From Escherichia coli (GTDB taxonomy: Bacteria; Pseudomonadota; Gammaproteobacteria; Enterobacterales; Enterobacteriaceae), in assembly GCF_013315695.1 (NCBI RefSeq), contig NZ_CP054353.1: a stretch of DNA of 64,000 nt; one strand, written 5' to 3'. Position numbers: made by a program. Within the stretch, counting starts at the first letter, position 1, and every line of letters begins with the position of its first letter. This document shows positions 33,001 to 60,000 of the stretch, one piece after another.

Positions 33001-36000
33001 TCAGAAAGTACGGCAAAACATTCAGCAGGATCACTGGCAGCATAAGCATCAATGCTCGCCGCATTCTCACCAACTAATTCGATTTCTTCCTGAATGTTGT
33101 TCATTGCAGCATGAAGATCGTGTTCCCAGCCAGCAACCTCACGCAACGAAATAAAGGGAACTCCGCTGGCGCGATCGCCGTTACGGGTGTCCAGCTTATG
33201 AGCGACTTCATGAATAATCAGGTTAAAACCAGAAGCATCAAAAGAATCTTGTATATCCAACCAGTTCAAAACGATAGGCCCTTGCTGCCAGCTCTGACCT
33301 GACTGAACAATACGTTGGTTATGCACCAGACCGATATCGTCTTCCCATTCATCATCGACCACAAATGGCGCAGGATAAATTAAGATTTCATGAAAACCAT
33401 CCAGCCATTCCAGTCCTAACTCCAGAACGGGCAGGCAAAATAGAAGTGCTATCCGGCAGCTTCTTAATGAATTCAGCTCAAAGCCCTGTAAAGGAACAAG
33501 CCGTTTTTGCTGTAAAAAACGTTCGGCAAGAGCGACCAATTTGCTTTGTTCCTGTTCTGTCAGACACGTTAAAAGGGGGATCGATAGTGCTTCCTGCCAG
33601 GGAAGGGCAGTTTGATGTGCTGATTCTTGTACTTTCCAGGGCCACTTAATCATCGTTTTGCTCGCAAACTCGTCACTTGAACAAAATTGCACGGACAGGG
33701 ACTGTTAAAATGCCAAATTTCCTGGCATCATGGCAACCATCTGAACGGAGAGATGCCGGAGCGGCTGAACGGACCGGTCTCGAAAACCGGAGTGGGGGCA
33801 ACTCCACCGGGGGTTCAAATCCCCCTCTCTCCGCCAAAATTCAATCACTTACACATCATTAAGTCAGTGACAAAAATCACACTTGGAATTACTTGGAATA
33901 TTTTCTTGGAATATTTTCAGGTAACGGGACATCAAGTGTTGGTGAAACTTTAACCTTCCTGTCATAGATTAGCACTTGCCCTTCGGTTTTGTGACCAGAG
34001 AAAAGTTGCTTATCCCGGCTGCTTCCTTCATAGTCTGAAATTCCTTTCGCCTTCAGATCATGAAAGGTGAAGTCGGTTAAAATACCTGAAATTTTTCCAG
34101 CACGATTTCTTGCTTCTACCCACATTTCGTTAAAGCCTTTGTACATATATCGGTTGCCGTATTGATTGCTGATCACATAGGCAGATTTTGGTAACTGTTT
34201 TGCTTTTTCGATCGCTGCCTGTAATCGTGGACTCCATGCTTTTATCTGTTTTTTTCCGGTTTTCCCTTGCTGGATGAATATCCCGTCGTTTCCAATCTGT
34301 TCCCATTTCAGCGATAACACATCGGAAACCCTCGCTGCACACAGATAGGCAATTTCCATTGCGATAAAAACAGGAAGAGGTGCAACGCTTAATACTGCCT
34401 GGTATTCTTTGTCGGTTACATATCGTTCGCGGTTTTTGGCCTTGAATTTACTTACACCTGCACATGGGTTAGCCTTGACGTACCCTCGCTCATACCCCCA
34501 ACTGTAAACACGGGACATACTGCTTTTTTCATGGTTGGCTTGCGTTTTACTCTGCTCCCCTCTTTTGTCCATGTATCGACGGATGTGTTCTGGTTTTATG
34601 GAATCCGCTGGTACCTTACCGAATACGGCAAGCAACTTTTTTTGATGTTGCAGATAATCTTTTTGTGTTCTTGGACTAAGGTCACTGTAATAGGCGCTGG
34701 CGAGGAATTTTTCCCACAAGCGACCGAATGTCATTGCACGATCGCGATTATTTACAGTTTCCTCATACTTTTTCCATAAAGCAGCTAAACCATCCTTGAT
34801 GGCGGTTAGTGTGACAGATTCTCTGGATGTTGGTTTCCATACATAACTATATTTATTTGGGTATACATTTGGAGGTAATTTTTCGTGTTCAGGATTTTTC
34901 CTTCGTCTTCCCATCAGATCGCACCAAAATTCGGCTCTACCTCGCGTGGTGGTAAAGTTTTATTGCAGGTAAATAGATCCCGGCTGACAATCGGTTTGCC
35001 ACTACGATTGGTATAGAACGGAAGCCCGTTTTCCATTAACCATTTTCGCTGGTGGCTTGCATATTTGCAGCCCGTTAATATTAGCAATTCATCTTCGGTT
35101 AAAAATAAGCTGCTCATAGCTATATCTCATAACCGCCGCTAACTATATACGGTTAGCGGCAATTAGGGTTGAACATTAAAAATCAGCCTGACTCGGGATC
35201 AGTTTTTGCCAGATAGCTGAAACGTATTTTGCCTGGTAACGAGCGTCATCAAGTGCATTATGTCGCTCACCTTCGAATGGAATAGCCGTTCTGGCATCGA
35301 AGTCTATGGCTTTCCCCAGCTCAACGATTGTGCGTACATCGCGATCGTTGTAGTAACGCCACGGGCAGGGGATCCCCTGCCGTTCGTATGAACGGCGCAA
35401 AATCGTGTTGTCGAAGTTGGCTCCATTTCCCCAAACCTGAACAAAAAATTCACCGGAGTTTTCGTCGATAAATTCCCGCAATTGTAACAGTGCATCATCT
35501 AACGGGATTTCATCGGTCATAATGGCAGATTGCGCTTCGCGTGATTGCTTAAGCCACCATTTAATGGTGTCCCGATCAATGACTCCGCCAGCAGTTTCCA
35601 GATCGATAGTCTTACTAAATTCCGGTCCCATATCTCCGGTTTGCGGATCGAAAAATATTGCACCTATTGAGATGATCGGGGCATCAGGATTTTTTCCCAT
35701 GGTTTCAAGGTCGATCATTAGATGGTCACACGTCCTGCTGGTGGATGTGATTTCGTGATGACCGTTCACCTTAATTGAGTGATCTGCCGTCTCGCCAGTT
35801 TTATTATCGCTGGCGTGATGCTGATTGCCGCCAGGGTTCTCCTTGTGTGGATGTTCAGCGCCTTCCATTTCCTCCGGATCATTTTCCTGAACTTCAACCT
35901 GATTCTCTTCATCGAATGTTTCCTGGTATGTTGCGTCGCCCATCACCGCGCCACAATCAGGGCAGTTGCCGCCACCGCTCTGACCGCAGGCGGTGCAGAC

Positions 36001-57000: not shown

Positions 57001-60000
57001 TCGCCCCTGTCAGGGAGTGAAGAGACAATTTATCTTTACGCCGTCACGTCCCTGATGCTTCCAGGTAGAGAGGGGCTGGACGCAGGAGAAAAATGAAAGA
57101 GCCAGCGGTTATATTTTTGTCATGGCTGACGAGGAATGATGGAAGAAGGCGTTGTATGCCACACAACGCCTCACTGTTCATTTCTTCTTTTTCTCTGGTG
57201 GAACCCGATGAATAAGAGTTGCACTGGTTTCCGATGAGATGGCGATATACTCGGGCAAAGTATGCTGGCAGTTTTCCAACTGGTCAAAAATACCTGCTCT
57301 CGTCTGTTGCAATGCCTGCAGCATGCGGCGGCAATGCGCCTTGCTTTTACTAACCATCTTTCCTTCCTCTATCAGTCGCTGCGTGAACTCATCATGTAAT
57401 ACCAGGTAAATGCGGATGTTATCGGTTTTGGCTACGCAGCATAGTACAAAACGGACAGGTGCATCCCGGGACGGGGGAGGCGTCACATGTCCCTGTGATG
57501 GTTGTTCCGGGTAATGCACTGTGTGGGGCATAAAAATGTCCGATAATTTTACTTTCTACCGCAGTTAGTTGATTCGTTGGTCCTGGTAGCACATTGGGCG
57601 AGGATTTAAATGCCAGGCAACTGAAGGATGATGTTGCAAGGGAGATAGCGAGAATATTTCTGATTTTCATTTGATGATGCCTCTGTGTGAAATGACGGTA
57701 AACGACGCACTTGTGCCGGCACATAATAGCAAGCACCATAATAGATCAGATTCGATTCTTGCTGTAAGTGATAATCATTCTCGTTTTCGGGTCCTTTCCG
57801 TCGATCCAACAGGTTACGGGGCGGCGACCTCGCGGGTTTTCGCTATTTATGAAAATTTTCCGGGAACCATGTCCGGTTTCTCTTCAAGTTAACTATATGA
57901 AAAATAAAAAAAGAGGTCTTCTGTGAACCGGACATGCACAAAAAATAGACATGTAAGCCGGACATGACCGGTTTTGTTGTGATTGTGAAGTGAGAGTTTT
58001 TGCGAGGTGAGGAGTGGCTACGCAGACTGAAGTTGCCAGGCATTTAAGTCTGACCGATCGCCAGCTTCGCAGATTGCAGAAATTGCCGGGTGCCCCGATA
58101 TCGAATAAGCGAGGGCAACTGGATCTGGATGCCTGGCGCGATTTTTACATATCGTATCTGAGAAGAAGTAAAAACGATGTGCCTGATGGCGATAGCGAAG
58201 ACGACTATGAGGAGAAATTGCTTATTGCCAGATGGGAACTGACAGCAGAACAGGCTGTTACACAGCAGTTAAAAAATGAGGTGTCAAAAGGAAAACTTAT
58301 TGACACCGGGTTCTGTATTTTTGCCCTCAGCAAGCTGGCAATGGCGTTATCCAGTACGCTTGATTCCATCCCTTTATCCATGCAGCGACAGTTTCCTGAT
58401 TTAACACCGCGCCATCTTGACCATCTGAAAACCCTTATTGCGAAGGGGGCAAATCAGTGTGCGCGGGCGGGGGATAAATTACCGGATTTACTCGATGAAT
58501 ATATCAGAGCAACAACTGAATAATATGATGAGTGCTGTCACAACAGCATTACAGCCCCTGATAAGGGCATTGCCGGTGACGCCAGTTGAATGGGCTGATC
58601 AAAATTATTATCTGCCTAAAGAATCTTCATATGGTGAGGGAGAATGGAAAACGCTGCCGTTCCAGATCGCCATCATGAACAGCATGGGGAATGATCAGAT
58701 CCGGACTGTTAATCTGATTAAATCTGCCCGTGTTGGCTATACAAAGATGTTGCTGGGGGTGGTCGGGTATTTTATTGAGCATAAATCCCGAAACAGTCTG
58801 CTTTTTCAGCCCACGGATTCTGCCGCTGAAGATTTTATGAAGTCTCACGTGGAGGCGACGATTCGGGATGTGCCATGTCTGAAAGACCTTTCTCCATGGC
58901 TGGGGCGTAAACATCGTGACAATACTCTCACGCTGAAACGCTTTTCATCGGGTGTGGGCTTCTGGTGCCTGGGCGGCGCTGCCGCCAAAAACTACCGTGA
59001 AAAATCCGTGGACGTGGTCTGCTATGACGAACTTTCCTCGTTCGAACCGGATGTCGAAAAAGAGGGTTCGCCAACCCTGCTTGGGGATAAACGTATTGAG
59101 GGCTCTGTATGGCCCAAATCCATTCGCGGCTCGACGCCTAAAATCAAAGGCACCTGCCAGATCGAAAAAGCGGCCAACGAGTCGGCGCATTTCATGCGTT
59201 TTTATGTGCCCTGCCCGCACTGTGGGGAGGCGCAGTATCTGAAATTTGGCGATGAGTCCACGCCTTTTGGCCTTAAATGGGAGAAGGACAGCCCCGAAAG
59301 CGTTTTCTACCTCTGTGAACATCATGGCTGCGTGATCCATCAGTCTGAGCTTGACCAGAGCAACGGGCGGTGGATCTGTGAAAACACGGGGATGTGGACC
59401 CGCGACGGTCTGACGTTTTTCAGCGCTGCGGATAATGAAATTCCGCCGCCGCGCTCCATCACATTCCATATCTGGACGGCGTACAGTCCGTTCACCACCT
59501 GGGTACAGATTGTCTATGACTGGCTGGATGCACTGAAAGATCCCAACGGCCTGAAAACCTTTGTGAACACCACGCTGGGCGAGACCTGGGAAGAGGCCGT
59601 GGGCGAAAAACTCGATCACCAGGTGCTGATGGATAAGGTTGTGCGTTACACGGCTGCGGTGCCTTCCCGGGTGGTTTATCTGACGGCGGGCATTGACTCG
59701 CAGCGAAACCGTTTTGAGATGTATGTCTGGGGATGGGCTCCGGGAGAGGAAGCCTTTCTGGTGGATAAAATCATCATTATGGGGCGTCCCGATGAGGAAG
59801 AGACGCTGTTACGTGTGGATGTGGCGATCAACAAAAAATACCGCCATGCAGACGGAACCGAAATGACCATTTCCCGTGTCTGCTGGGACACCGGGGGGAA
59901 TTGTCTATCAGAGGTCAAAAAAACACGGTGTTTTCCGGGTGCTGCCGGTAAAAGGTGCATCTGTTTATGGCAAGCCGGTGATCACCATGCCAAAAACCCG

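Follow-up and report, generated by a model that had tools for sequence, protein, structure and literature searches.

Overall organization of the serU prophage

The analyzed stretch (referred to as the window) comprises 64,000 nucleotides of the Escherichia coli chromosome (RefSeq assembly GCF_013315695.1, contig NZ_CP054353.1). A prophage starts inside the 3' end of the tRNA gene serU and runs beyond the end of the window, with about 30 kb of it visible. It contains an integrase gene and an excisionase-like gene, a leftward operon with DicF, a small RNA (sRNA), plus the genes dicB, ydfC and ydfD, a DicA/DicC-type immunity switch, replication genes, the antiterminator gene Q, a lysis cassette, a cos site, and lambda-like terminase and head genes (Table 1). 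The gene for the terminase large subunit is disrupted by a small deletion. Very probably, the element is one of a common family of lambdoid prophages, mosaic in its makeup and integrated in the 3' end of serU, and its packaging is broken in the present strain.

All visible genes except that of the terminase large subunit are full length, and they are 98.6–100% identical to their counterparts in the serU prophage of E. coli AVS0196. The latter fills the 47 kb between serU and zinT and includes complete sets of lambda-like genes for head and tail, together with J, lom, a gene for a tail fibre, and attR; it occupies the same site, has an intact terminase, and is 99.5–99.6% identical to the present prophage outside a swapped immunity cassette (see below). 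Near-identical serU prophages are also found in strains AVS0790 and MSB1_4I.

An initial reading of the DNA (the sequence-only reading) had described a Qin-type immunity and division-inhibition module inside an apparently complete lambda-like prophage. The genes on which it was based are indeed there: dicA/dicC, ydfC, DicF, dicB and ydfD were located at or near the positions first assigned to them by NCBIfam and Rfam matches and by identity to the K-12 genes, and int/xis, the replication genes, Q, the lysis cassette and head genes were all recognized by Pfam or PHROG matches. The assignment to a lambda-like prophage at serU holds for the site and for the Qin-type layout of dicB–dicF (dicBF) and immunity genes. 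Of the Qin genes, ydfA and ydfB have no counterpart here.

Table 1. Features of the serU prophage (positions in the window).
Feature	Position	Strand	Evidence and remarks
serU, tRNA-Ser(CGA)	33747-33836	+	ARAGORN, Rfam
attL core	33775-33836		3' 62 nucleotides of serU; 60/62 match to attR at the far end of the AVS0196 prophage
CTTGGAAT motifs (three), with a tandem repeat of 13 bp (33892-33917)	33882-33917		Over the int stop codon; read from sequence
Tyrosine integrase, 341-residue allele	33889-34914	-	Pfam Phage_integrase, N-terminal and central integrase domains
xis-like DUF4224 protein	34914-35117	-	Pfam DUF4224; PHROG excisionase families, best E = 3e-21
Exonuclease, 813 residues	35176-37617	-	Exonuc_VIII and 3'-5' exonuclease domain; 100% identical to AVS0196 protein
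ydfD	37711-37902	-	YdfD 95% identical to K-12
dicB	37899-38087	-	DicB 100% identical to K-12; NCBIfam DicB model 132.8 bits (cut-off 100)
DicF sRNA	38262-38313	-	Rfam RF00039, 76.7 bits (gathering score 48), E = 3.6e-15
ydfC	38655-38873	-	96% identical to K-12 YdfC; matches phrog_1744
ECs_2282-family zinc-ribbon gene	38966-39166	+	NCBIfam NF047912, 57.3 bits (cut-off 37)
Promoter resembling dicBp/pL (TTGCCA-17-TAAATT) and two operator-like sites (TTGTTAGATCAATCTAACAA, TGTTAGGTTATTCTAAATT)	39383-39441	-	Sequence
DicA-type repressor, 135 residues	39474-39881	-	NCBIfam NF007257 (DicA) 224 bits (cut-off 101); Pfam HTH_3
Divergent promoter region of the repressor and cro-like genes	39883-39951		Repeat families D1, I1, I2; same two operator types
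DicC, Cro-type	39959-40189	+	Pfam P22_Cro; NCBIfam DicC model 166.7 bits (cut-off 130)
YdaT-like gene	40173-40724	+	100% identical to AVS0196 protein
O-like replication initiator, DnaT domain	40696-41736	+	100% identical to AVS0196 protein
Iterons, 5-6 ACACCCAAA repeats	40982-41178		Inside the O-like gene
Lambda-P-family loader	41729-42190	+	100% identical to AVS0196 protein
sok RNA and hokD toxin	45834-46158	+	Rfam sok 106.7 bits; HokD 100% identical to K-12
rem	46375-46626	+	93% identical to K-12 Rem
ydfU (DUF968), rusA, Q antiterminator	46973-49224	+	Q at 48403-49224, Pfam Antiterm
Two phage tRNAs: CAT anticodon (Ile in relatives' annotation) and Arg-TCT	49368-49618	+	
Lysis cassette: phage-21-type holin, 297-residue DUF1327 protein, lysozyme, two small open reading frames, Rz spanin	53783-56418	+	
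cosN GGGCGGCGACCT	57819-57830	+	12 nucleotides, identical to the lambda cohesive end
Three CCGGACATG sites, one inverted and two direct	57868-57966		Between cosN and the small terminase gene
Small subunit of the terminase (Nu1 family)	58014-58523	+	N-terminal DNA-binding part unlike that of lambda
Terminase large subunit, gpA-type, broken	58495-60412	+	11-bp deletion at 59899/59900
Head genes W, portal (B), protease/scaffold (C)	60396-63686	+	gpW, lambda-family portal, S49 protease

The terminase lesion and the state of the prophage

The terminase large subunit gene has lost 11 bp (TCGATGGCGAA) by comparison with three independent relatives. Its product would consist of 468 native residues followed by 65 out-of-frame residues; the match to lambda gpA, at 68% identity, extends only to residue 468, and the nuclease domain covers only positions 3–159 of the 294 in the profile. 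The longer version of the gene is present in all 1,857 complete E. coli genomes that contain this stretch, and the deletion junction was found in none of the 5,426 complete genomes searched. Searching for exact copies of the truncated protein likewise gave no match. An identical portal protein is encoded on nine contigs, all of them free of the deletion, with either an intact 642-residue terminase or a fragment of it. The interval delimited in the sequence-only reading stops at the end of the small terminase gene, about 1.4 kb short of the deletion, and the suggestion made there of an apparently complete, possibly inducible prophage does not apply to the present strain.

Alternatively, the prophage could be fully functional and inducible, with the lesion arising from an error of sequencing or assembly. 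The condition of the other genes in the visible 30 kb agrees with this, as do the switch and the replication, Q, lysis and cos elements, which all look intact. However, the lesion is a deletion of 11 bp rather than a one-base homopolymer error, and it cuts the nuclease domain in half. Compared with the three independent relatives, it is also the only coding indel in about 30 kb, and the comparison with a fourth strain, MMC-J-0105, shows not a single indel in 26.9 kb. An assembly error is therefore unlikely and the lesion is probably real, and we regard a functional prophage in this strain as highly improbable.

The opposite possibility is a remnant similar to Qin, with a truncation or rearrangement past base 64000 and with defects besides that of the terminase. 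The window stops in the head genes, inside the gene that follows protease/scaffold gene C, and the one inactivating mutation suggests that decay has begun. Up to base 64000, however, the window is collinear at an identity of at least 99.6% with intact relatives that have complete head and tail modules, and a more extensive defect is very unlikely.

The interpretation as a common lambdoid prophage with broken packaging must also be weighed against the following. The tail genes and attR of the present genome lie beyond base 64000. DNA identical to the int gene is labelled as frameshifted by PGAP in two relatives, which bears on excision competence. The action of Rem is known only for K-12 DicA, to which the present repressor is 57% identical. 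Finally, the 11-bp deletion could in principle come from an assembly error. On balance, the present prophage is ordinary and probably defective. Automated prophage tools would probably call it intact, although one small deletion probably stops packaging.

The cos site and head genes

The cos site had been described as identical to that of lambda. This is correct for cosN and the approximately 33 bases that follow it; the cosB region is wholly different and does not align. Between cosN and the small terminase gene, the window has three CCGGACATG sites, which are the only three occurrences in the 64 kb and are candidate cosB sites of non-lambda specificity. Such sites would fit with the N-terminal part of the small terminase subunit, which is unlike that of lambda Nu1. 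The arrangement of the sites recalls lambda R3, R2 and R1; their sequence is different. The head proteins are 61–68% identical to those of lambda, with the portal at 61%.

Attachment site and integrase

The integrase gene and the excisionase-like gene abut serU. The sequence-only reading had called for the att repeats to be located; attL was found, as a single copy of the core in the window, whereas the second copy was seen only in the relative AVS0196, where the 62-nucleotide core is repeated at the far end of the prophage. The three CTTGGAAT motifs that overlap the end of int are probably arm-type Int binding sites of the P' arm.

The 13-bp unit at the end of int and in the likely P' arm (CTTGGAATATTTT on the + strand) varies in copy number among E. 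coli genomes. Two copies are present here and in about 89% of the carriers, and variants with one and three copies exist. Both the C-terminus of the integrase and the number of CTTGGAAT motifs change with the copy number. The catalytic region of the present integrase, including the GH...Y motif, is in frame, and the last residues differ from those of a 345-residue reference through a copy of the 13-bp repeat. This allele is matched at 99% identity or more in 1,023 of the 1,151 genomes with this integrase. The supposed frameshift was thus downgraded as a lesion and is not counted as a proven defect: it is a copy-number variant that follows the catalytic tyrosine, and the allele labelled as frameshifted in the relatives is the commonest one.

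The leftward dicBF operon

The order of genes in the leftward operon is that of Qin, with ydfC upstream, followed by DicF, dicB and ydfD. DicF and its flanks are identical to K-12 dicF. The zinc-ribbon gene lies antisense in the leader of the operon, at the place of Qin ydfA/ydfB. No tblastn match to YdfA or YdfB was found in the window. An assignment of the zinc-ribbon protein as Qin YnfU was considered and rejected, as the two have no meaningful similarity.

The immunity region

The genes of the DicA-type repressor and the DicC-type protein are divergent, and each of two operator types is present at both promoters. The leftward promoter is in a position homologous to that of Qin dicBp. The predicted operators, TTGTTAGAT..ATCTAACAA here and TTGTTAGTC..ACTAACAA in Qin, are related to each other but different. 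The repressor consists of a helix-turn-helix (HTH) domain only, with no LexA-type peptidase domain according to Pfam. It differs considerably from K-12 DicA (57% identity), yet it scores well above the NCBIfam DicA cut-off.

A 660-bp cassette (39389–40048), containing only the repressor gene, the operators and cro, is swapped between the present prophage and that of AVS0196, which are otherwise 99.6% identical; the repressors of the two are 52% identical. The present cassette is itself 100% identical in at least seven other genomes. Prophages that are otherwise identical thus exchange their DicA-type immunity cassettes as one unit, about 660 bp in length.

The protein Rem, which is the antirepressor of DicA in K-12 Qin and relieves DicA repression 165-fold (PMC10448788), is encoded further to the right. 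Rem is 100% identical in the present and AVS0196 prophages despite the divergence of their repressors. Most of the differences among four repressor alleles lie in the HTH; the linker (CSPTW..FGDEDK) is largely shared, as is the C-terminal helix region, both being invariant or nearly so. It is conceivable, if unlikely, that Rem recognizes this conserved C-terminal part and would act as a general inducer of prophages with DicA-type repressors, whatever their immunity. If true, the many prophages with dicBF in a given strain would be tied together by Rem in one induction network.

Control of rem by the SOS response was rejected, as no LexA box (CTGT-N8-ACAG) is found upstream of the gene; the only matches in the prophage are inside the O-like gene (41027) and Rz (56005).

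Replication, accessory and lysis genes

The O-like initiator gene contains the iterons of a putative replication origin. Among them, CTGTTAATAAAAACAG (41027–41042) is a good match to a LexA box; it may be merely AT-rich origin sequence. Between the gene of the P-family loader and sok/hokD there is a run of small accessory genes. To the right of Q and the phage tRNAs, the STnc100 sRNA and an iraM homologue (opposite strand) are found at 50317–50867; these are typical accessory cargo, as are hokD/sok and the tRNAs. A SASA-type esterase gene lies between the iraM homologue and the lysis cassette. Ten accessory open reading frames were searched for defence systems with PADLOC, which gave nothing credible.

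The lysis cassette was recognized by the Pfam domains Phage_holin_2_1, Phage_lysozyme and Phage_lysis, and its EssQ and RrrQ proteins are 79% and 89% identical, respectively, to those of K-12. The open reading frame of 297 residues between the holin and lysozyme genes (54000–54893, + strand) resembles DUF1327 (YdfR) at its N-terminus, and its match to phrog_1085 extends over 296 of 296 positions. Its counterpart in AVS0196 is annotated by PGAP as a partial YdfR. With an end-to-end match to phrog_1085, the pseudogene assignment was rejected, and the PGAP call looks like an annotation error.

The flanking chromosome

Upstream of the prophage, the window contains a yersiniabactin island at a tRNA-Asn gene, followed by mtfA and serU. 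This high-pathogenicity island (approximately 20600–32520) has its own integrase and adjoins the tRNA-Asn gene just upstream of mtfA and serU. The open reading frame of the island integrase (31256–32518) is uninterrupted throughout, apparently with a non-standard start codon. The insertion sequence (IS) that is present in irp2 of MMC-J-0105 is absent from irp2 here.

Proposed working of the prophage

From the gene content, the sequence identities and the terminase lesion, the following regulatory scheme can be proposed. In the lysogen, the short DicA-type repressor would silence the leftward (dicBp/pL-like) and rightward (dicCp/pR-like) promoters through TGTTAG-containing operators, as suggested by homology and by the layout of the operators, and DicC, by homology, would act in the role of Cro. 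Cleavage of the repressor in the SOS response is not expected, since it has no peptidase domain. Induction would instead occur through the prophage's own Rem, as for Qin in K-12, and by spontaneous switching. For K-12, the bistable DicA/DicC switch, its spontaneous switching and the processing of DicF have been described (PMC10448788).

Derepression of the leftward operon would lead to transcription of ydfC, DicF, dicB, ydfD and the exonuclease, xis-like and int genes. Because DicF and DicB are both identical to the K-12 molecules, the effects known from K-12 should apply. DicF lowers translation of ftsZ and manX; DicB recruits MinC to the septum through ZipA and also prevents phage DNA from entering in the ManYZ-dependent way (PMC6832061, PMC5069750). 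The net result, an arrested host division with competing phages excluded, would resemble the role of lambda Kil. On the rightward side, the gene order suggests O/P replication at the iterons in the O-like gene, Q-dependent expression of late genes and phage-21-type lysis, with cos-dependent packaging into lambda-like heads as the final step.

In the present strain, an induced prophage could still arrest division, replicate and lyse the cell; no infectious particles would be expected. Packaging should fail because there is no working terminase large subunit, and it would need a matching terminase from another prophage. Such a rescue has been proposed for an O157 prophage that lacks an intact terminase (PMC2669165).

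Comparison with known systems

DicB and DicF in a lambdoid prophage at serU represent a kind of system that is already known. Of the 5,426 complete E. coli genomes, 4,636 contain the DicF–dicB–ydfD block (median two copies, maximum nine), and dicBF has been reported in full-size lambdoid prophages of O157 (PMC5069750). Phages mEp460_ev081, PhiR42_1, Tritos, HannyBb and vB_EcoS-640R1 have the same left arm as the present prophage, with the exonuclease, ydfD, dicB and DicF, as well as a 135-residue DicA-type repressor, a DicC-type Cro and a YdaT-like gene. Two of them (mEp460_ev081 and PhiR42_1) contain an exact copy of the 52-nucleotide DicF together with DicA-type repressors, and Tritos is annotated with DicF. 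The repressor alleles of these phages are 52–57% identical to the present one, and the best phage record covers at most 44% of the present region. These phages form particles, whereas the present prophage, known from its sequence, has a broken terminase.

The proposed usefulness of the locus for studying DicB and DicF in an inducible phage is superseded, as a functional phage with dicB, dicF, dicAC and rem, mEp460_ev081, has already been published (PMC10448788). Since dicBF is found almost universally among the lambdoid prophages of E. coli and is documented in viable phages, the locus offers neither a new kind of system nor an advantage for experiments over published phages like mEp460_ev081, and its importance beyond annotation is small.

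The serU prophage of MMC-J-0105 illustrates how such elements are assembled. From the chromosome up to and including ydfU, it is 99.5% identical to the present one, and the immunity regions of the two are 100% identical; beyond ydfU, it has another Q and lysis region and HK97-type head and late genes. Judged by this joining of the same early region to an HK97-type late region, the present element is a typical lambdoid mosaic.

Compared to Qin, the present prophage has the same order of immunity switch and leftward operon and a repressor of the same short antirepressor-type family. The highest DNA identities are found in the ydfC–DicF–dicB–ydfD block (97.6%) and the hokD–rem–ydfU block (90%), within which DicF, DicB and HokD are identical and YdfC, YdfD and Rem nearly so (Table 1). 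In contrast, the immunity region is only 72% identical in DNA, and the proteins diverge to various degrees (DicA 57%, DicC 83%, Q 40%, the small terminase 41% to NohA, and the integrase 23% to IntQ). The integration site is serU and not the ydfJ/rspB junction of Qin. The present prophage also lacks the relBE, flxA and csp genes, has the antisense zinc-ribbon gene in the place of ydfA/ydfB, and contains a full set of O/P, Q, terminase and head genes (with the terminase large subunit frameshifted), which Qin does not have. The view of the element as a more intact relative of Qin is therefore borne out for the two blocks and not for the immunity region, Q, the Nu1-type protein or int.

Direct descent, with less decay, from the phage at the origin of K-12 Qin would account for the identity of the two blocks and for the shared genes being in the same order. 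However, it is difficult to reconcile with a different integration site and a divergent integrase, a divergent repressor with different operators, the low identities of Q and the Nu1-type protein, the missing Qin genes, and the swapping of whole late regions among serU relatives, and we consider it extremely improbable. Given the divergent int, repressor, Q and Nu1 and these late-region swaps, the modules in common with Qin point to lambdoid recombination and not to a single lineage.

The overall order of modules is that of lambda, and cosN and the adjacent bases are identical. The similarity extends to gpA, the portal and the Rz gene (84% DNA identity for the latter), whereas the Nu1 N-terminus and cosB differ. 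The present prophage has no lambda N, cI/S24, exo-bet-gam or kil; its lysis genes are of the phage-21 type and not lambda S/R, and DicB/DicF are in the functional place of Kil.

The serU prophage of O157:H7 strain PV15-279, which is probably Sp14 or CP-933U, occupies the same site and has an integrase of the same family, with a 100% match over 111 nucleotides at the 3' end of int. Also common to both prophages are the xis-like gene and the exonuclease, as well as a ydfD-like gene and a homologue of dicB. Its int is interrupted by an IS, its DicB is 65% identical, and no exact DicF was found in the stretch of this prophage that was compared. The repressor is of the cleavable LexA family. Thus, as this prophage pairs a dicB homologue with a LexA-family repressor, dicB modules are combined with both types of repressor.

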